A DNA stretch of 64,000 bases from Myxococcales bacterium (GTDB taxonomy: Bacteria > Myxococcota > Kuafuiibacteriia > Kuafuiibacteriales > Kuafuiibacteriaceae): the NCBI GenBank assembly GCA_019634385.1, contig JAHQVK010000050.1:20072-84071 (forward strand). Direction: 5' to 3'. Under the pieces are notes generated by a model. That model worked only from the letters and a program-made list of their open reading frames with translations, was not told where the DNA came from and made no database searches. A program made the translations under genes and the position numbers. This document shows positions 26,390 through 57,727 of this stretch, piece after piece (position 1 is the stretch's first letter; every line of letters begins with the position of its first letter).

Positions 26390-27823
26390 CTACTCAGCAT
26401 CTTCAGTAGATTGCTCTTCTTGGGGCTCCACAACAAAACTCAACGAATCAATTTGTAGACCGGGTAAACCCAACGATATGTCAGTTTGGATACCAACCGG
26501 ACCAGGCACCGTGTACTGCGCTGGCTGACGACAACTGATATTTCCAAGCTGAACCAAAAACGTGCCGTCTGACCGTCGCACCGAGCTCCCCGGGACATCA
26601 ATCACCGACCCGAGTTGGCCAGGAAAACACTTAGTCTCAATGTCCTCTTGCGTGTTATCCGCCCGCAAACAAGTGCCGCTGTATTGCCCCTCTTCCACCT
26701 CGCAAGTCGTCCGGCATGCGTTCGGCCGGATAGGCACGGTAATTCCATCAGAGCTTTCAATATCATCCGCTACGCACTGCTCATTGGAGGGACATTCATC
26801 ATCCGACGCGCAGGCTTGGCGGGTCTCACTACAGAGACCACACCAACACCGGAAGCGTTTGTTACCATTCTCATCCTCGGGACCACAGCTAGGTTGATCC
26901 GAGGTGAGCGTGCGGCGAACTCCCTGAGAATTCCCCTCCGTGAAGCCCACACTCAGTGCCACTCCCAAAGGTTGGGTACAATCGAGACTATAGTAACCAG
27001 CCTCACCATTAAACGTCTGTTCACCATTTCTATCACAAGACTGGCGAATTCCAACCTCCTCGTCATATGGGAAAGAGCGGACAGGCGCCGGTCCCGAGCT
27101 ACCGGCAGTTTGGCACTCACCGTCTCTTTTACCATCATTTGCGACCAAATCACCAACACACACCGCGCACTTACCCGGTTTAGAAAAATCGGTCGTGCCG
27201 GTGTTACTAAAAAACCGGTCAAAGCTCACTCGCCCAGTTTCGGTATTTATCAGTCCCGTCACTGGAGGTTCAGTATCCGAGGGATCCTCGTTGGCGAAAA
27301 ACACCGCGGCGCAAGTCACCTGGCCTTGGAACACAGGAAATGGCGGGCCAAGAAAATATGCACAGGTAGAGTTACCACAGGATTCACTATCATCACAGGA
27401 CTGGCCATTGTGAGCACATACTTTACGCCCTAGCCCTGATGAGTCGCTGGGATCAAGGTTTCGACACTCCCAGGGTGGACAGTCAGCATCGCTGTCACAA
27501 ACGATAGAAGTATCACCTACACATCGCTGAGTAACCACTGGGTGATCCCGAACTGGCCCTGCAAAGGCGCAGTTCCTACAATCTGGACTGCAAGTAGTGG
27601 TCTTTACCCGGACAAAAGAATTGAGCGCGAGAGTCGTATCGTGCCCCACCCCTGTCCATCCGATCTTGACCTCGTTGCCAGCAACAAATGTAAATTTGAA
27701 ATGAGATGGGCATTGCTCAGACTGGGGAGGTTCTGGTGAGAAATTCGGAGGATCACCTGGTGATCCCGAACACCCCAACAACATACTCACCACCACGATC
27801 AGCCCACAAACCCGCACGCGCAT
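26390..27823 (-). CDS. Cysteine-rich secreted lipoprotein (hypothetical)
   Basis: Lipoprotein signal MRVRVCGLIVVVSMLLGCSG. 477 aa with more than 40 Cys in paired patterns (CxxC, CDxxxxC). No enzymatic motif recognised. Confidence 0.6.
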   Translation of the reverse strand: MRVRVCGLIVVVSMLLGCSGSPGDPPNFSPEPPQSEQCPSHFKFTFVAGNEVKIGWTGVGHDTTLALNSFVRVKTTTCSPDCRNCAFAGPVRDHPVVTQRCVGDTSIVCDSDADCPPWECRNLDPSDSSGLGRKVCAHNGQSCDDSESCGNSTCAYFLGPPFPVFQGQVTCAAVFFANEDPSDTEPPVTGLINTETGRVSFDRFFSNTGTTDFSKPGKCAVCVGDLVANDGKRDGECQTAGSSGPAPVRSFPYDEEVGIRQSCDRNGEQTFNGEAGYYSLDCTQPLGVALSVGFTEGNSQGVRRTLTSDQPSCGPEDENGNKRFRCWCGLCSETRQACASDDECPSNEQCVADDIESSDGITVPIRPNACRTTCEVEEGQYSGTCLRADNTQEDIETKCFPGQLGSVIDVPGSSVRRSDGTFLVQLGNISCRQPAQYTVPGPVGIQTDISLGLPGLQIDSLSFVVEPQEEQSTEDAE

Positions 27824-27918
27824 GCTCTCGGCGTATAGTTGTGAAACCGGATTATTTCAAATCTTTCATTCGCAATTTCTTCGACCCACGTCAGAATATT
27901 AGCGCTCTCCCGCACCGA

Positions 27919-28093
27919 GCAGCCTGTTGATTTGGCCATGTGTGTAGCTGTCGAGCCAGGCTTTTCGTGAAACGCTCTGACGACGAGGCGAGCGTACCAG
28001 CCGGTACGTGACCGAGGAGAGACTTTTCGTGGTCAGGACGTTTCACGGAAAGACCGGCCGACAGATGCGTGCAGGGCTAGATCAACAGGCTGC
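27919..28093. repeat. Long imperfect palindrome (about 175 bp) with nested inverted repeats
   Basis: Outer arms gcagcctgttgat / atcaacaggctgc. Inner arms ttttcgtgaaacg / cgtttcacggaaa. Perfect central palindrome cggtacgtgaccg at 28001-28013. Intergenic. Confidence 0.65.
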
Positions 28094-28358
28094 TAGAGGC
28101 GCCGCTTGAAACCACTTGGCTAAAAAGTCAGTCGTAGTTTGTGTCACCTCCGATAAGCCCCTTCTCGTCCCCAGACATCAGCTATCTTAGCAACCGCTAT
28201 CTCTAAATGGCTTCAAAAGTGGTAAACAAGCACGCCAAGAGCCGACCCGCCCGGTGTAGACCACAGATACGCACTATCAAGTGCACTGAGCCATTTGGGT
28301 TCATCAAGCCACCATTTTGGCACTAATTCCAATCTACTGAAAGAAACCAAAGCGGTCT

Positions 28359-30560
28359 TCACCCATTATTTGTCGTCGCCTGGCGTGCCGCCTCAATTTT
28401 CGCTCGCGCACCTGGAGTGAGCGCACCCGCAACCACCTCAGCAATATCTAAGACCGGCATATCTTCATTCCCGTGGTGCTTTAGACCATCGCCGATCATC
28501 GTCTTACAGAAAGGACAACCAACCGCTACCGCCTGAGCTCCGGTGTCAATCGCCTGCTGGCTGCGCACGATGTTGACGCGAACGTCACCAGGCTCTTCTT
28601 CCTTCCACATTTGTGCTCCTCCCGCACCACAGCACAGCGATTTTCGGCCATGGTCTTCCATCTCAACCACCTGGAGACGCTTAACTGCCGCAAGGCTCCT
28701 GCGAGGTGCTTTCGTTTCATCGTTCCAGCGTCCGAGAAAACAAGGATCATGGAAAGTTACCTTGCTAAGTGTTCCCACATCTACATCTAATCGCCCCTCT
28801 TCGAGCAATTGACTTATGAGTTGTGAGTGGTGAAGTACTTCGTAGTCACCACCAAACGCTGGATACTCATTTTTTAGGGTATTAAAACAATGAGGACACG
28901 CAGTGACAATTTTTTTGACTCCGAGGTCATTCAGCGTCGCCACATTAGTCTGCGCTAAAGCATCAAACAGGTACTCATTTCCACCTCGACGAGCAGGATC
29001 CCCCGTGCATTGCTCGTTTTGCCCTAAAATAGCATAAGTAATACCACCGGCATCCAAAATATCAGCCAGGGCTCGTACTGACTTCTGTGCAGTAATGTCA
29101 AAGCTTCCCGCACAACCAACCCAGAACAAAAACTCATACTTACCCGCATCTTCGCTGCCACCCCAGTATCGCAAACCTAGTGACTGAGCCCAATCAGCAC
29201 GCTTATCTGCGCCGATACCCCAGGGATTATAGTTACGTTCAATATTCGTAAAAGTATTGTTCCACTCCGCGGACACTGCTCCCTCTGTGAGGGTCAAATA
29301 CCGCCGAAGATCCACAATCGCATCTACGTGATCGATCAAAACCGGACATGCTTCGACGCAGGCTCCACAATTCGTGCAGGCCCCCAGTACTTCACGAGAG
29401 GTCTGAACACCTTTCATTCGCCCCTCTTCGGTTTCAGCGATCAACGGAACTTCCGGCTCCCAGTCTGCCGGCGCTGCCGTCACTTCAAACAGACCTCGAT
29501 CTGCTAGTAGCTTATCACCGTTGAGATATAAATTACCACGGATATCATGAATGAGCTTCTGCGGATTCAGAGCCTTTCCGGTACGAGTAGCGGGACAATA
29601 TTTATTGCAACGCCCACACTCGGTGCAAGCATAAGTATCTAGGAGCGTCTTCCACGAAAAATCATTTACTTTACCTACCCCGAAACTCTCAGCATTCTCA
29701 TCTTCAAAATCCAGTCGACTAAGCGCAGCTTTGTGCTTTTCTCTTTTGTGAAGGAATATATTAGGAATAGCTCCCAGCAAGTGGATATGTTTGCTCTTGG
29801 GTATGACATTTAAGAAAGTAAGAAGCACAACCGCATGAGACCACCAAAAGATCTCGCTCAATACATATGCGAGCTTAACATTCATCCCCACAAAGAAGCT
29901 AGCGACCGTATTTGAAACTGTGATGGCTTTCGCATGACTTGTGACAAATGGATCTTTTCCAGCAATAGCAAAACCCATAGCACCAAAGTAGGTTATCATC
30001 ACCATCGCAATGAGGCTCAAAATAAGATATCCCTCTTTGCTGTCATAGTGGATATGGCTGGGGCGCAAGACCAAGCGTCGAAATAGTGCGGCCACCACTG
30101 CAAAAAGGACAACAAACGCCATGAAGTCTTCACCAGCAAGAATCAGGTGGTACAGACCATCCCCCAGAAAGGACAGACTAAAGCTAGGAACAACGCCGCG
30201 AACCAAAAATTCAATATGCCCCACGGTGATAATCAAGAAGCCCCAGAAGAAGATGACGTGATTCCACCCAAATTTCTCCTTCACAACTTTGCGCTGAAAG
30301 AAGACCAGATATATGACTGCACCGATACGGTCCGTAATATCCTTGATGGGATTCGACCGACTCTGCCCGAGAGCCATAAGACGGAACATGCGCCATACAG
30401 AATGAGCGAACAACCCCATCATAGCGACGAAAAAAACGCCGAACACAATGGGCTTTAGCACTGCGTACATCACTGCATTGGATACCGACACTTGTGGGTC
30501 TGACGCAATGTGATTAACCAGCAAGTATGCCGCAATTTCCATATCTCTGCGACTATGCAA
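28359..30560 (-). CDS. Membrane-anchored Fe-S oxidoreductase: polytopic N-terminal domain fused to a 2x[4Fe-4S] ferredoxin and an HdrD/GlpC-like CCG-domain module
   Basis: About 7 TM helices at the N-terminus. Ferredoxin motifs CTECGRCNKYCP and CTNCGACVEACP. Two CCG-type Cys-rich blocks including CCGAGG. 733 aa. Confidence 0.75.
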   Translation of the reverse strand: MHSRRDMEIAAYLLVNHIASDPQVSVSNAVMYAVLKPIVFGVFFVAMMGLFAHSVWRMFRLMALGQSRSNPIKDITDRIGAVIYLVFFQRKVVKEKFGWNHVIFFWGFLIITVGHIEFLVRGVVPSFSLSFLGDGLYHLILAGEDFMAFVVLFAVVAALFRRLVLRPSHIHYDSKEGYLILSLIAMVMITYFGAMGFAIAGKDPFVTSHAKAITVSNTVASFFVGMNVKLAYVLSEIFWWSHAVVLLTFLNVIPKSKHIHLLGAIPNIFLHKREKHKAALSRLDFEDENAESFGVGKVNDFSWKTLLDTYACTECGRCNKYCPATRTGKALNPQKLIHDIRGNLYLNGDKLLADRGLFEVTAAPADWEPEVPLIAETEEGRMKGVQTSREVLGACTNCGACVEACPVLIDHVDAIVDLRRYLTLTEGAVSAEWNNTFTNIERNYNPWGIGADKRADWAQSLGLRYWGGSEDAGKYEFLFWVGCAGSFDITAQKSVRALADILDAGGITYAILGQNEQCTGDPARRGGNEYLFDALAQTNVATLNDLGVKKIVTACPHCFNTLKNEYPAFGGDYEVLHHSQLISQLLEEGRLDVDVGTLSKVTFHDPCFLGRWNDETKAPRRSLAAVKRLQVVEMEDHGRKSLCCGAGGAQMWKEEEPGDVRVNIVRSQQAIDTGAQAVAVGCPFCKTMIGDGLKHHGNEDMPVLDIAEVVAGALTPGARAKIEAARQATTNNG

Positions 30561-31896: not shown

Positions 31897-32805
31897 TCAT
31901 GCGGGCGCGCTTGAGGCAGTGCGTTGCCGCTGGCCAGTGCGCCACGAATGCCGCCTTCGGCCTCGCCGCTGACGGGACGCCAGCCAAGCTCCCGCAGCCG
32001 GGTCGCGTCGAGGGCCGCATCCATCCATCGCGAGGAACGCGGCCAGCGGCCCGTTGGCTTCGTTCGCCTCTGACAGCGAGCGATGTCGTACGGGCACGCT
32101 CACCGCTTCGGCGATGGCCGTCCAGATCCCGACCATTGGCTCCGGCTCGAGCTCCGCGGCATGAAAAACACCGCGGGCCTCAGATTCGGCGAGCAGGACG
32201 TACGCATCGGCGAGGTCGCGTACATGCACGGTCGACCACCGATTCTCCCCGCCGTCGATAACATACGCGGCGCCCGTCGATGCTCCCTGCACCATGCGCG
32301 CGACCGGGCCACCGCCGTCGCCGTAGACGATCGGGGGTCGAACGACGACGCCTCGAACGGAGCGGGCGGCGAGCACCCGTTCCTCGGCGTGGGCAAGCCA
32401 ATCCAGCGGCCCCCCGAGCGGTGCAACATCGGACTCGACGACCGGAACACGGCTACTCCTCGCCCGCGGTGCTCCGCTGGTTGTTACGAATACCCCGCCT
32501 TCCATGCTCGCCAACATTGCTGTCACTGCAGCTTCGTCGATTGCCGCCCGCTGAGGTCCGGGGTCCGCGGCCGTGTGCACGACTCCATCGCCTCGTGCCA
32601 CGACCGCTGCGAGCACGGCGACGTCGGTCAAGCTCGCCTCGACGGGCGTGCCCCCGGCCGCGCGAACGACTTCCGCTGCGTGTGCAGAGCGAGCGAGGCC
32701 TCGCACCCGGTGCCCTCGTTTGACGAGCGCACGCGTCACCGCAGAGCCGATGTAGCCACTGGCTCCCGTGACGAACAGGTCCAAGGCTCCTTGATCGGCT
32801 GTGAC
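31897..32805 (-). CDS. NmrA-like / atypical SDR NAD(P)-binding oxidoreductase (in high-GC island)
   Basis: Rossmann motif VTGASGYIGSAVTRALVKRGHRVRGLARS. The region is about 70% GC against about 54% in the flanks. Start approximate: a GTG near aa 164 of the 465-aa ORF, whose upstream part runs into the neighbouring gene in a different frame. Confidence 0.6.
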   Translation of the reverse strand, partial: VTADQGALDLFVTGASGYIGSAVTRALVKRGHRVRGLARSAHAAEVVRAAGGTPVEASLTDVAVLAAVVARGDGVVHTAADPGPQRAAIDEAAVTAMLASMEGGVFVTTSGAPRARSSRVPVVESDVAPLGGPLDWLAHAEERVLAARSVRGVVVRPPIVYGDGGGPVARMVQGASTGAAYVIDGGENRWSTVHVRDLADAYVLLAESEARGVFHAAELEPEPMVGIWTAIAEAVSVPVRHRSLSEANEANGPLAAFLAMDGCGPRRDPAAGAWLASRQRRGRRRHSWRTGQRQRTASSAPA

Positions 32806-33016
32806 GTGGAAGACGACAGCCCCGGCCGGGGGCCTACGACGAAGACGCGGAACTCGGCCTCGAGGATGAGGGGGGAGGACGCTCTCGTCATCGACGATGC
32901 CGTGCTGGGGGCCATTGCTGGCGCCCCCACGTTGGCCGTCAAAGACGTCGAGACACTGTTCGCGGAGAACGAGCCGACCCCTAACTAGCTGACCATAACA
33001 GGCACACCCTAGGAGG

Positions 33017-33898
33017 CTACAAAAGGGATAGTTGAGCTCGATCGGAGGATGTTGGACGCAGTGGCCAGTCGGGCAGAGGGGCCATTTCGGGCATGACTTG
33101 GCACAGATGCTCATGAAACCGCCGGGCCAACCACGGAGCGTGGTGATCGTCCGGGGTATGACAATAAAAAAACGGTGATCGTCCCTCCCTAATCCAAATG
33201 GCCACCGTCTCTGCCCACTCACGTAAGAATGGATCACATTCTTCCACCTGATTACGACCGATAAACCGGACCAGCGGGTGCTGACCGAGTGCAATCTTTC
33301 TCACTGGAACCCGCGGTTTACGGGACTGTGCTTCCGCCGTGCTTGGATCCTTGGGAGGCAATGAAAATAGGGGGCGGCTATCAAAGCACACCCGTTCCAC
33401 GCCAAAATGGGTCAACAAACGGTGGAGATCCCTCTCGTTGTTCCCTTGGTCAAACCAATCAACATGCCGAAGCTCAACGGCTAGTGGACGGTCTTGGGGC
33501 CAGTGTTCCAAAAAGTGGCGAACCCGTCGCCCTGCTGATCGGCCCGCTGATGGGGGAAGCTGTAGCATGCAGGGCCCAAGACAAGACCCAAGCGGAGATA
33601 ACACCTCTAGGAACCTCGATAGGTCTGCTTCATAAAACTGGAGTGCCTTTTCATGGGTGATTGTCCGCGGCAACTTAAAGGCAAATCGAAAATGGTCAGG
33701 GATCTCCGCCTTCCACTTCGCGACCGTGGTTAGAGACGGCAAAGCATAGAAGGTGCTGTTACCCTCTACAGTGGAAAAGAGCTGCGTATATGCCGAAAGC
33801 TGCCGACTGGCGGTCGTATGGGGAGGCAAAACCGCCCCCACCCAGCTTCGTGTCGCAAACACCGGGCATCCCAAGCGATAGAGTGGCGCGTAAGTCAC
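33017..33898 (-). CDS. DUF72 (YecE-like) family protein
   Basis: The VEGNSTFYALP motif and overall pattern match DUF72. 293 aa. Confidence 0.75.
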   Translation of the reverse strand: MTYAPLYRLGCPVFATRSWVGAVLPPHTTASRQLSAYTQLFSTVEGNSTFYALPSLTTVAKWKAEIPDHFRFAFKLPRTITHEKALQFYEADLSRFLEVLSPLGSCLGPCMLQLPPSAGRSAGRRVRHFLEHWPQDRPLAVELRHVDWFDQGNNERDLHRLLTHFGVERVCFDSRPLFSLPPKDPSTAEAQSRKPRVPVRKIALGQHPLVRFIGRNQVEECDPFLREWAETVAIWIREGRSPFFYCHTPDDHHAPWLARRFHEHLCQVMPEMAPLPDWPLRPTSSDRAQLSLL

Positions 33899-34099
33899 CT
33901 CCCCATAGTCCGTGGTTTCTTGGGCAATTGCATCTCTGCCTCGGTTGTAACCTCCTCAATTCGGTCAACGATAGCGGTAAGCCCCAAGGCACTCACATGT
34001 CCAACGGCTCCCCACCGGATCACGATGAATCGGTGGTGCTCGCAGCACTCGCTATCGACTTTATCTAACCGCGGATCGCACGATGCCCATTACACTCCG

Positions 34100-39932: not shown

Positions 39933-39975
39933 ACAGCAAAAATCGCTTGGGTTCAACCCAAGTGGTCTATGCTGT
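39933..39975 (+). repeat. MITE-like repeat, copy G (43-bp minimal derivative)
   Basis: tACAGCAAAAatcgcttgggttcaacccaagtggtctATGCTGTa. It keeps the termini and the central ttgggttcaacccaag hairpin only. Confidence 0.65.
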
Positions 39976-40027
39976 ACACCGCCAATATTAGGCGACAATA
40001 CAATGGGACGGACATTAGTTCAACCCA

Positions 40028-53236: not shown

Positions 53237-53347
53237 CAACAGAAATCACTTGGGTTGAACCCAAGCGCCTGCTTTTACGCCGGGCTATGCCCCGCTGCGC
53301 GACCACTTGTTGATTCTTATAGAATCAATTCAAGTGGTCTTTGCTGT
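53237..53347 (-). repeat. MITE-like structured repeat, copy C (full length, reverse orientation)
   Basis: Reverse complement reads tACAGCAAAGaccacttgaattgattctataagaatcaa...cgcagcggggcatagccc...cttgggttcaacccaagtgatTTCTGTTGTg. Confidence 0.8.
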
Positions 53348-55666: not shown

Positions 55667-55778
55667 TTAACCATATACAGCAAAGACTCCTTGAATTGAT
55701 TCTGTAAGAATCAACAAGGAGTCGCGCAGCAGGGCATTGCCCCGCTGCGAAGCTGGAACTTGGGTTCAACCCAAGTTC
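55667..55778 (+). repeat. MITE-like structured repeat, copy D (full length)
   Basis: tACAGCAAAGactccttgaattgattctgtaagaatcaacaaggagtcgcgcagcagggcattgccccgctgcg...ggaacttgggttcaacccaagttctTTCTGCTGTa. Confidence 0.85.
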
Positions 55779-56071
55779 TTTCTGCTGTAAAGGTATCGCT
55801 CGGCCTACTCTTCACCTGAGGTATGTCTTTTACGTCGGAGGTGCTCTATGACTCGCCCCCAATTAGCGAAATGTCCGGCGACCTGCGATCCCCCGTCTTG
55901 CTGCTAGCCTCTCCTTCAACTCGCTATGACCAACCTCGATCCGAGTAAAACATTCAGGTAAACCAAGGTATTTCGCAATAGTTCTACGCGGACCTTAAAG
56001 ACACGCCATAGTGAGGAATACTCCTCCATCAGTGATAGAGGAGTATTTGAACCACAAAATTAACCCACCTC

Positions 56072-57727
56072 TTACCGGTAGAGACGATAGATAGTGCCAC
56101 CATCTGTGAGAATATAGATCGATCCGTCTGGAGCTTCGGACAACTCTCGAAAACGAACATTCATATCCTCAAACATTTTGGTTTCGCTGATCACCGCTTC
56201 ACCATCCAACGTAAGACGTGAAATATGTCGCCCTGCCAACGCACCTACGAATAGGTTCCCTTTCCATTCGGGAAACATATTCCCTCGATAAAAAATCATC
56301 CCTGATGGGGCTATAGACGGCGTCCAGTAGTGGATCGGCTCTATGAAACCCTGTCCTGCATGGTCATCCGGAATCTGTTCTCCATTGTAATGGCTTCCAT
56401 AACAAGCTAACGGCCAACCATAGTTTTCACCTGCTCGCGGAATATTAACCTCGTCCCCACCTTGAGGACCATGTTCATGATTCCATATCTTTCCGGTTGT
56501 TGGATGAACAGCCATTCCCTGAATATTGCGATGCCCATAAGACCAGATTTCTGGCCTTGCATTTGCTTGATTCACAAACGGATTATCATTGGGAACCTGA
56601 CCATCAGGATGGATGCGGATGATCGTTCCAAGATGGTTATTGATATTCTGAGCTTGATCATACTCAAAATATTCGCCGAGGCCGATAAATAGATGCCCAT
56701 CCTCGTGGAATGCCAATCGACAGCCATAGTGAAGACCCCCTCCTCCTATTTTGGTGGCAGTAAATATTACCATCCAGTCCTGTAATCGCGCCCCATCAAA
56801 ACGAGCGCGGGCCACCTCCGTTCCCGACTGATTTCCCTCTTCTCCAGCGTAACAAAAGTATACATATTGATCTTGGGCAAAGGTTGGACCAACCAATACA
56901 TCCAGCAGTCCTCCTTGACCTTCCGCCTCAATATTAGGCAATCCGGCTAACGGGGAAGACAGCATGTGGTCGTTACCCAAAAGGCGAAGATTTCCCACCT
57001 TCTCTGTCACTAGAGCGCGACCATCAGGTAAGAAATCCAAGCCCCATGGCCAACTCAGACCATCAACAACCACCGCCATCTGAGGCTCTCCAGTTGGTAC
57101 TGGTTCGGGGACTGGCTCCGGTTCGGGGACTGGCTCCGGTTCAGGGACTGGCTCCGGTTCAGGGACTGGCTCCGGTTCAGGGACTGGCTCCGGTTCGGGG
57201 ACTGGTTCCGGTTCGGGGACTGGCTCCGGTTCGGGGACTGGTTCCGGTTCGGGGACTGGTTCCGGTTCGGGGACTGGTTCCGGTTCGGGGACTGGTTCCG
57301 GTTCGGGGACTGGCTCCGGTTCGGACGCACCGCAGCGCACACCATTGACCACAAACATTGCGGGCACGTTGGATGAGCTGCCATTTGACGCTCCAATAAA
57401 TCCTGGACTAACTGATCCACCGGAAGGAATATTGCTATTCCAAGACTCATGGGTTACAGTGACCATCTGTGATGAACTTGATTGCTCAAACTGTCCCGCC
57501 CACCCCTGAACAATAGATTGGGTCTCAGGCAATAGAAATTCTAACTGCCAATTAGTTATCGCATTAGATCCAGTATTTTTAATAGTTATCTGACCTTGAA
57601 AACCGCTATTCCAAGAGTTCATGATCCTATAATCAACATCACAAGAAACTTGAGCCCACGTCGGCGAGGTAGCAAAGATCATCCCAACCGCCGTCAGTCC
57701 CGTGTGGACTACCCTAAATATATTCAT
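56072..57727 (-). CDS. Secreted CBM2-(EPEPVP)n-PQQ-dependent soluble sugar (aldose) dehydrogenase (GSDH/YliI-like six-bladed propeller)
   Basis: Signal peptide. CBM2 ([25 protein letters not shown]...NGVRC). 20x EPEPVP linker. GSDH blocks [42 protein letters not shown] and [17 protein letters not shown]...[11 protein letters not shown] match the YliI/Asd family. Confidence 0.75.
57098..57325. repeat. 18-bp tandem repeat (ggttcggggactggctcc)n encoding the (EPEPVP)n linker
   Basis: About 12 near-identical units seen directly. They generate spurious repeat ORFs on both strands. Confidence 0.85.

Follow-up and report, generated by a model that had tools for sequence, protein, structure and literature searches.

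A 175-bp imperfect palindrome beside a lipoprotein gene of a Myxococcales bacterium is probably one copy of a foldback-type bacterial MITE

Introduction

Bacterial MITEs are small (<200 bp) and non-coding, they are bounded by terminal inverted repeats (TIRs) with 5'-TA-3' at the termini, and their transcripts form long stem-loops (PMC2229807). The Correia/NEMIS elements of Neisseria are about 105-155 bp in length, non-coding and mostly intergenic, with long TIRs and TA ends, and when transcribed they fold into a long stem-loop that can be cut by RNase III (PMC2229807). RUP in Streptococcus pneumoniae and other IS630-derived MITEs are likewise small TIR-bounded repeats that insert at TA, and an IS630-family transposase acting in trans has been proposed to move them (PMC2229807, PMC2170065). 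According to the account in PMC2170065 and the title of Tenzen & Ohtsubo 1991 that is cited there, members of the IS630 family insert into TA with its duplication, show a preference for CTAG and at times leave behind AA or a single A. A different group is formed by the enterobacterial repeats YPAL/RU-2 and ERIC, which are intergenic imperfect palindromes of 127-168 bp; YPAL is not A+T-rich and is often found at or next to dyad symmetries (PMC2229807). Invertons are segments of 150-200 bp that are bounded by inverted repeats and lie upstream of surface-protein genes.

In this study we analysed an imperfect palindrome that shares features with each of these systems. It is located in a 64,000-nt stretch of a Myxococcales genome, which as a whole is referred to here as the window. 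We consider it likely, with a probability of roughly 0.7, that this palindrome represents a non-autonomous DNA transposon, namely one copy of a foldback-type bacterial MITE, because elements of the same size with the same termini occur at unrelated loci and near-identical copies are found between unrelated flanks.

Results

Genomic setting and anatomy of the palindrome

A sequence-only reading of the window had described a 175-bp imperfect palindrome at 27919-28093. This was borne out by an inverted-repeat search and by folding, in which the foldback spans from terminal repeat to terminal repeat. The element lies, as that reading had it, in the spacer between the lipoprotein gene and the Fe-S oxidoreductase gene (535 bp, 27824-28358), upstream of the former and downstream of the latter (Table 1). 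Genes within about 9 kb of the element are of the housekeeping kind and encode Era, MnmA, HU, tRNA-Arg, a phosphoribosyltransferase, an NlpD-like protein, SurE, ATP synthase gamma, an epimerase, a DUF72 protein and a PilY1-like protein; no transposase, recombinase or reverse transcriptase was found among them. Neither promoter-like (sigma-70-like) nor terminator-like sites were found in 27600-28600 on either strand. The stem is followed by CGGUGCGGG on the - strand and by AGAGGCGCC on the + strand, and a U-tract is present on neither. A local G+C peak at 31900-34000 (0.62-0.72 compared to about 0.52 for the window) was observed over the epimerase-like gene at 31897-33294 (- strand).

Both outer arms that had been reported are present, with GCAGCCTGTTGAT occupying 27919-27931 and its exact reverse complement occupying 28081-28093, and the perfect repeat was found to comprise 14 nt (AGCAGCCTGTTGAT, 27918-27931 and 28081-28094). 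The inner arms, TTTTCGTGAAACG at 27962-27974 and CGTTTCACGGAAA at 28039-28051, pair with one mismatch. Sequence between the arms is also complementary, as had been proposed, and the inverted-repeat search returned two sets of arms, the outer of 43 nt with 74% complementarity (27911-27953 and 28059-28101) and the inner of 32 nt with 81% (27955-27986 and 28027-28058). The global arm-to-arm alignment contains 60 matches, 12 transitions, 8 transversions and 11 gap columns. The central feature had to be corrected: cggtacgtgaccg (28002-28014), which had been taken for a perfect central palindrome, is not palindromic and its pairing is limited to the outer 4+4 bases, the true apex of the fold being CGTACC-AGCC-GGTACG at 27993-28008. 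The element has a G+C content of 58% and is non-coding, its sole ORF being one of 51 aa that runs across the hairpin arms (27891-28046, - strand) and is without support.

Table 1. Coordinates of the palindrome, its parts and the flanking genes in the window
Feature	Coordinates	Strand	Remarks
Element body	27919..28093		175-bp imperfect foldback, from palindrome and fold; elements of this size with the same ends occur elsewhere
Left terminal inverted repeat AGCAGCCTGTTGAT	27918..27931	+	First A is part of the flanking GA dinucleotide
Right terminal inverted repeat	28081..28094	-	Exact complement of the left repeat; with its inner neighbours reads CAGCCTGTTGATCTAGCCCT on the - strand
Left flanking dinucleotide GA	27917..27918		Among the 22 family ends, 17 have T where the window copy has G
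Right flanking dinucleotide TA, then G	28094..28095		With the expected C on the other side, a CTAG-like target
Inner arm TTTTCGTGAAACG	27962..27974	+	Pairs with 28039-28051
Inner arm CGTTTCACGGAAA	28039..28051	+	The one mismatch is a G.U pair on the + strand
Apex hairpin CGTACC-AGCC-GGTACG	27993..28008	+	Centre of the fold
Cys-rich lipoprotein gene	26390..27823	-	Flanking, outside the element, which is 95 nt upstream of its ATG; signal peptide with LLGC lipobox; no Pfam domain
CCG / 4Fe-4S oxidoreductase gene	28359..30560	-	Flanking, outside the element, which is about 265 nt downstream of its stop codon

Several known identities were considered and rejected. A retron msr-msd does not suit the neighbours, which are the lipoprotein and Fe-S oxidoreductase genes with no reverse transcriptase within about 9 kb. 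An integron attC site would require the order 5'-RYYYAAC ... GTTRRRY-3', and the order here is reversed (5'-..GTTGAT ... ATCAAC..-3') with neither an integrase nor a cassette array. Resemblances to hix half-sites, a DnaA box, a parS half-site (CGTGAAAC), the ends of IS26/IS903 and the Himar1 ITR were considered as well, and the arrangement of the sites gave no support to any of them. As to the parS resemblance, positions 27966-27973 and 28040-28047 of the inner arms contain CGTGAAAC and GTTTCACG, which we take to be half of the parS consensus TGTTTCACGTGAAACA; the match is probably a coincidence since the other family members described below do not have it.

Folding of the element

Both strands of the element are predicted to fold into a stable structure that runs over its full length and is not confined to the termini, in agreement with the very long hairpin that had been suggested. 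As RNA, the + strand forms one hairpin with 79 pairs (-118.2 kcal/mol, z -11.8) and the - strand forms 68 pairs (-100.3 kcal/mol, z -8.3), while the fold with DNA parameters reaches -61.4 kcal/mol (z -9.9). None of 200 shuffles matched the element in the + RNA, - RNA or DNA folds. In a 200-nt sliding fold scan of the whole 64-kb window, the element was the top outlier on the + strand (residual z -6.3) and the fifth on the - strand. The second strongest + strand outlier was observed at 57051-57350 (-117 kcal/mol per 200 nt, GC 0.68); it is located inside an ORF at 56072-57727 (- strand), and no inverted repeat was detected there.

Searches for further copies

The sequence-only reading had pointed to a search for other copies as a check, and the outcome was divided: family members were found in other genomes and metagenomes, and no further copy was found in the window. 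The latter was searched with exact and 2-3-mismatch patterns, with blastn at word size 7, with nhmmer using four profiles and with an inverted-repeat scan; GCAGCCTGTTGAT and its complement occur once each, even when two mismatches are allowed. The window copy had no meaningful blastn match in phages or plasmids, and the same was observed for two relatives compared to plasmids. Rfam gave no match on the element at E<=10 and no relevant match at E<=1 on eleven related loci (ten family members and the Clostridiales locus L017); the sole match among the other members is a spurious plant-miRNA on the perfect hairpin of L024. Viral contigs were searched with 18-nt end patterns, which returned 0 and 24 matches, the 24 being single, coding-like or chance occurrences without a partner repeat. 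A full-text search of the literature for the 11-mers found primers only, and one for MITEs in Myxococcota found nothing relevant.

A scan of one genome per species (596 Gb, a collection that does not include the window's own genome) with the exact 12+12 pattern CAGCCTGTTGAT-N(134-164)-ATCAACAGGCTG gave one match, which occurs in a Myxococcales MAG (L009). Its 16-nt ends, CTAGCAGCCTGTTGAT, are identical to those in the window and the span between the 12-mer ends is 174 nt compared to 173 nt, with an interior that is unrelated to the window copy and consists of several small hairpins. The metagenomes were scanned with an exact 11+11 pattern, and 25 loci were returned that represent 13 independent loci, compared to a random expectation of about 2 that is optimistic in that the matching of one hairpin arm suffices. 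Because this raw chance estimate is optimistic for hairpin-shaped elements, family membership was limited to loci with conserved positions outside the searched 11-mer. Nine independent metagenome loci (ten with the duplicate L020) qualify, all of them GC-rich.

The family therefore counts eleven elements including the window copy and L009. Four of them form subfamily g1 (L022, L036, L040 and L021) and three form subfamily g2 (L018, which equals L020, L035 and L032), the other two being L027 and L024. In all, about ten loci besides the window have the same termini, TA-G(C)AGCCTGTTGAT...ATCAACAGGCT(G)C-TA, and the same size (156-175 bp), one being in the Myxococcales MAG and the rest on GC-rich contigs. 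That elements of equal size with these termini exist at unrelated positions in other genomes and in metagenomes lends support to the earlier suggestion that the palindrome is a second type of MITE. In subfamily g1 the apex GCCATAGTGGTGCTACGGC (columns 79-97 of alignment A3) is invariant in all four members, L021 with its 70% divergence included, and only the surrounding stems vary; this apex could be a protein-binding site.

The remaining loci, namely the Clostridiales locus, L033/L038, L039 and L041, were set aside because they have no such conserved positions around the 11-mer or are located inside probable ORFs; they are probably unrelated to the family. The Clostridiales locus belongs to a human-gut bacterium and consists of a 181-nt segment with inverted repeats of 21 nt (CCCGAAGCCTGTTGATATTAA) at its ends, which is located about 45 nt upstream of fabH. 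This segment occurs in both orientations, as in L031:6715-6895 compared to L017:301-481, and was also found in L019, L023, L025, L026, L028-L030, L034 and L037. The flanks in the 11 contigs are 90-99.8% identical, with orientation A in the 90% and 96% lineages and orientation B in the group of at least 98.5%, a distribution that resembles an inversion occurring rarely in evolution more than it does switching. The locus has no TA ends and has 11-12 nt in common with the family.

Ends, flanks and signs of mobility

The 11-mer AGCCTGTTGAT is common to all 22 ends of the 11 members by design of the search, and conservation extends from it on both sides, the ends reading CC-T(T)A-R-S-AGCCTGTTGAT-(C/A)(T/A)A(G/C)CC. 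The right end of the window copy is identical over 20 nt (CAGCCTGTTGATCTAGCCCT) to the left ends of L022, L036 and L040, which is 9 nt beyond the match imposed by the search. These three members are 91-93% identical over the element, whereas their flanks (140 nt on each side) are at the background level of about 50-55%; similarly, the identity between L035 and L032 is 88% within the element, and their flanks are unrelated. More distant copies are L021, which is about 70% identical to the g1 group, and L018, about 70% identical to the g2 group. The interiors of the subfamilies cannot be aligned, and what supports homology to the window copy is about 14-20 nt at each end together with size and architecture.

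Homology between copies stops at TA on each side. Six of nine members have TA on both sides and the other three on one side, where the second dinucleotide is GA (window), TC (L021) or AA (L018). In 14 of the 22 ends a C lies just outside the TA, and the ends read C-TA, element, TA-G. From this pattern the GA on the left flank of the window copy (27917-27918) may be a decayed TA target-site duplication; the TA and CTAG flanks are themselves palindromic, and a TA duplication is thus indistinguishable from the outermost pair of the repeat. Among the other members, L024 contains a near-perfect 187-nt hairpin with the same ends (L024:1555-1741) that is centred in a flanking palindrome, ACCCGCGCTC-TA...TA-GAGCGCGGGT, with a partial second copy about 350 nt downstream of the first (L024:2076-2160). 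L032 likewise lies inside a flanking palindrome.

A Logan contig (L001) from sample SRR12681089, which is an independent assembly, represents the same organism, with 100% identity over 124 nt. Its position 1 corresponds to 27947 of the window, and it ends exactly 30 nt into the element as counted from A27918. Logan assemblies are k=31 de Bruijn graphs (PMC12424806), and a stop at 30 nt fits several flanks because a k=31 contig halts after k-1 shared bases. The contig end therefore suggests a graph branch, i.e., another copy or a variant in SRR12681089, and a variant at 27948 would produce the same end without a multicopy element.

Conservation at the locus in relatives

The proposed comparison of orthologous spacers went against conservation of the element in place, whether approached through homologues of the lipoprotein or of the Fe-S protein. 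Only six homologues of the lipoprotein were found, with identities of up to 39% and in differing contexts. The best homologues of the Fe-S protein are 62-81% identical, and the named ones belong to Myxococcota or 'Deltaproteobacteria' MAGs; the host is itself an uncultured myxococcotal bacterium. With either of two start codons, an exact look-up of the Fe-S protein gave no recorded match. In all relatives with Fe-S proteins of 76-81% identity, the motif of the element is absent at the equivalent spot. The genes upstream (ATP synthase gamma and a kinase) are kept in these relatives and each has a different gene downstream, and the spacer downstream of the Fe-S gene (28095-28358 in the window) is for this reason a synteny breakpoint. 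The downstream genes are those for an RNase T, a hypothetical protein and a fatty-acid desaturase in L010, L011 and L014, in the place taken by the lipoprotein gene here. No empty site was found through the relatives of the lipoprotein or the Fe-S protein, in which synteny is broken, nor was one found for L032 through its upstream regulator, the nearest homologues of which are at most 63% identical with synteny lost.

In the closest relative found (L010, a 6-Mb contig with a Fe-S protein of 81% identity), the 190-nt spacer after the Fe-S gene (L010:8014-8203) is one long hairpin of another kind, here called family A, which is unlike the element studied. Family A is a hairpin repeat with the ends (T)ACAGCAAAGAC...GTCTTTGCTGT(A), made of units of about 113 nt with three small internal hairpins. 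It occurs three times in the window, at 55677-55789, at 53238-53346 as an inverted copy and at 39933-39977 as a 45-nt one-hairpin version. The ends of family A begin with TA-CAGC, like those of the family studied, to which it is otherwise unrelated. Taken together, the element and family A show foldback repeats to be colonisers of the intergenic spacers found at synteny breakpoints of this lineage.

Discussion

Weighing of the alternative explanations

The very stable structure predicted on both strands is what a functional RNA hairpin would lead one to expect, either as a cis-acting structure of the mRNA on the - strand (stabilising or terminating the Fe-S mRNA at its 3' end, or serving the lipoprotein gene as 5' leader) or as a separate sRNA of the long-hairpin type on the + strand; in that case the related sequences would make up a family of RNAs with the conserved closing stem AGCCUGUUGAU/AUCAACAGGCU. 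The strand bias of the folds also suits such an RNA. The + strand of the window copy folds 18 kcal/mol better than the - strand and contains 10 G.U pairs compared to 4, and one strand folds better by 10-33 kcal/mol in every member of the family, the same strand within each subfamily, with the window + strand corresponding to the better-folding strand of g1. Alignment folding of g1 and g2 found five pairs in each that change on both sides and remain paired, and the g1 apex is invariant. However, these compensated pairs are outnumbered by 8-13 broken ones, and the G.T versus A.C mismatch counts by which strandedness was tested are significant in no single element (9 versus 3 in the window, p = 0.15). 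In the window, the better-folding strand runs antisense to both neighbours. A terminator role, which had been among the suggestions, is not supported given that neither strand has a U-tract and no terminator-like site exists in 27600-28600, and promoter-like sites are missing as well. A structured leader as a conserved device fares no better, as the relatives with 76-81% identical Fe-S proteins lack the element and one of them has a different hairpin repeat in its place. Rfam matches are absent at E<=10 for the window copy and, apart from the spurious one, at E<=1 for the ten other members. Conservation within the multicopy subfamilies ends exactly at the base of the hairpin, with no conserved promoter or terminator outside, and the interiors differ wholly between subfamilies, with L009 having a different architecture. 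A functional RNA is therefore unlikely as the primary explanation. The strand-asymmetric folding may also be read as a sign that the element is mobilised as single-stranded DNA, by a REP/RAYT- or IS200/IS605-type system, or the mobilising enzyme may be of the IS5/Harbinger type with CTAG or TNA duplications instead of the IS630 type. The CTAG flanks of L009 and the CTAA/CTTAG-like flanks of others would fit duplications of 3-4 bp, and L024 and L032 are centred in flanking palindromes. Set against this, direct repeats of 3-4 bp are inconsistent, with TTA on one side and TAA on the other in L032 and L035, there is neither a REP-like short unit nor a GTAG-type 5' tetranucleotide, and no Y1 transposase is located nearby, all of which make these routes improbable.

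A segment of typical inverton size that is bounded by inverted repeats and lies 95 nt upstream of a lipoprotein gene would also be consistent with an inverton, in which a site-specific recombinase acting on the terminal repeats flips the segment of about 150 bp and turns the gene on or off. The Clostridiales locus with the same 11-mer pair, in which an inverted-repeat-bounded segment of 181 nt occurs in both orientations between identical flanks, and the break of the Logan contig inside the element point in the same direction. Yet an inversion would alter little, given the self-complementary interior; there are no promoter-like sites within the segment, and no recombinase gene was found within about 9 kb, although a distant one is possible. 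The orientation at the Clostridiales locus tracks the divergence of the strains, and that locus, without TA ends, probably belongs to another family. The near-identical copies between unrelated flanks fit transposition better, and we regard the inverton as very unlikely. The most improbable of the explanations is that the palindrome is a one-off local inverted duplication produced by a replication template switch, a cruciform-prone quasi-palindrome with neither family nor function. The single copy in the window and arms that resemble a decayed perfect palindrome are compatible with such an origin, but elements of this size with the same 14-20-nt ends are present in other organisms, and an interior that is about 25-30% diverged lies between perfect termini; the existence of the family has already largely refuted it.

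The palindrome as a foldback transposon

The reading as a foldback-type MITE accounts for a small, non-coding unit of 175 bp with perfect 14-nt TIRs and a predicted transcript that forms a long stable stem-loop. Dispersed copies were seen for its relatives (L022/L036/L040 and L035/L032), while the host itself provides one copy in 64 kb and the hint from the end of contig L001. Several observations count against this reading, namely the left flank of GA instead of TA, the one copy in the 64-kb window, the strand-biased folding and the few compensatory pairs, the last two because purely selfish DNA requires neither. Mobilisation specifically by an IS630/Tc1-mariner-type transposase is a tentative proposal, at somewhat less than even odds, suggested by the TA ends and the CTAG-like flanks; no autonomous element with matching ends was found in the window, the other loci compared, plasmids or phages.

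On this proposal, a DDE transposase supplied in trans would bind the conserved ends of 14-20 bp and move the element by cut-and-paste into TA, preferably in a CTAG-like context and with duplication of the TA, which is the IS630/Tc1-mariner mode. The element would have inserted at a synteny breakpoint, the spacer that follows the Fe-S oxidoreductase gene, and decay may later have affected its interior, of which the arms are about 70-80% complementary, and one flanking TA that is now GA. Transcripts that cross the element, through read-through from the Fe-S gene or as the leader of the lipoprotein mRNA, might carry a hairpin of about 80 bp because the whole unit is self-complementary, and one may speculate that this hairpin is a target of RNase III or impedes transcription or translation as described for the Correia elements of Neisseria. 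The long structure would accordingly be a property of the foldback transposon, with RNA-level effects on the neighbours as a possibility.

A bolder extension is that TA-bounded foldbacks of 160-175 bp are expressed as strand-specific long-hairpin RNAs and recruited as RNase III-dependent or antisense regulators of adjacent genes, or that their terminal repeats allow occasional flipping, as at the Clostridiales fabH locus. We regard this as a long shot; if true, it would define a class of mobile structured-RNA or invertible cassettes across phyla. In the transposon reading, an eye-catching palindrome is explained as mobile DNA and not as a dedicated regulatory device, which guards against its annotation as a terminator, a riboswitch-like leader or an sRNA. 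The family ends TA-G(C)AGCCTGTTGAT can be used for repeat masking, for the interpretation of contig breaks in Myxococcota MAGs and for a search for the transposase.

Comparison with known systems

The family is new in that it has no Rfam model and no relevant description was found in the literature searched; the kind of element is well known. Invertons share the general layout of an inverted-repeat-bounded segment upstream of a surface-protein gene, but the window copy, represented by one assembly and one truncated contig, has neither a promoter-like site nor a nearby recombinase, its interior is self-complementary, and both orientations were seen only at the Clostridiales locus. YPAL/RU-2 and ERIC are similar in size, in being imperfect palindromes and in their intergenic location, and the frequent position of YPAL at dyad symmetries may be compared to that of L024 and L032 within flanking palindromes; YPAL differs in having internal repeats and no TA termini, and the sequences are unrelated to that of the studied element. 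RUP and the other IS630-derived MITEs resemble it as small TIR-bounded repeats inserted at TA, but the matching IS of RUP is known (IS630-Spn1), whereas the IS630 link of the studied element consists of TA ends and CTAG-like flanks only. The Correia/NEMIS elements share with it a small non-coding unit, long TIRs, TA ends, a mostly intergenic location and a long stem-loop. The studied element differs in being G+C-rich (58%), slightly longer (175 bp) and found in Myxococcota and other GC-rich environmental bacteria, and the likeness described here is one of architecture.
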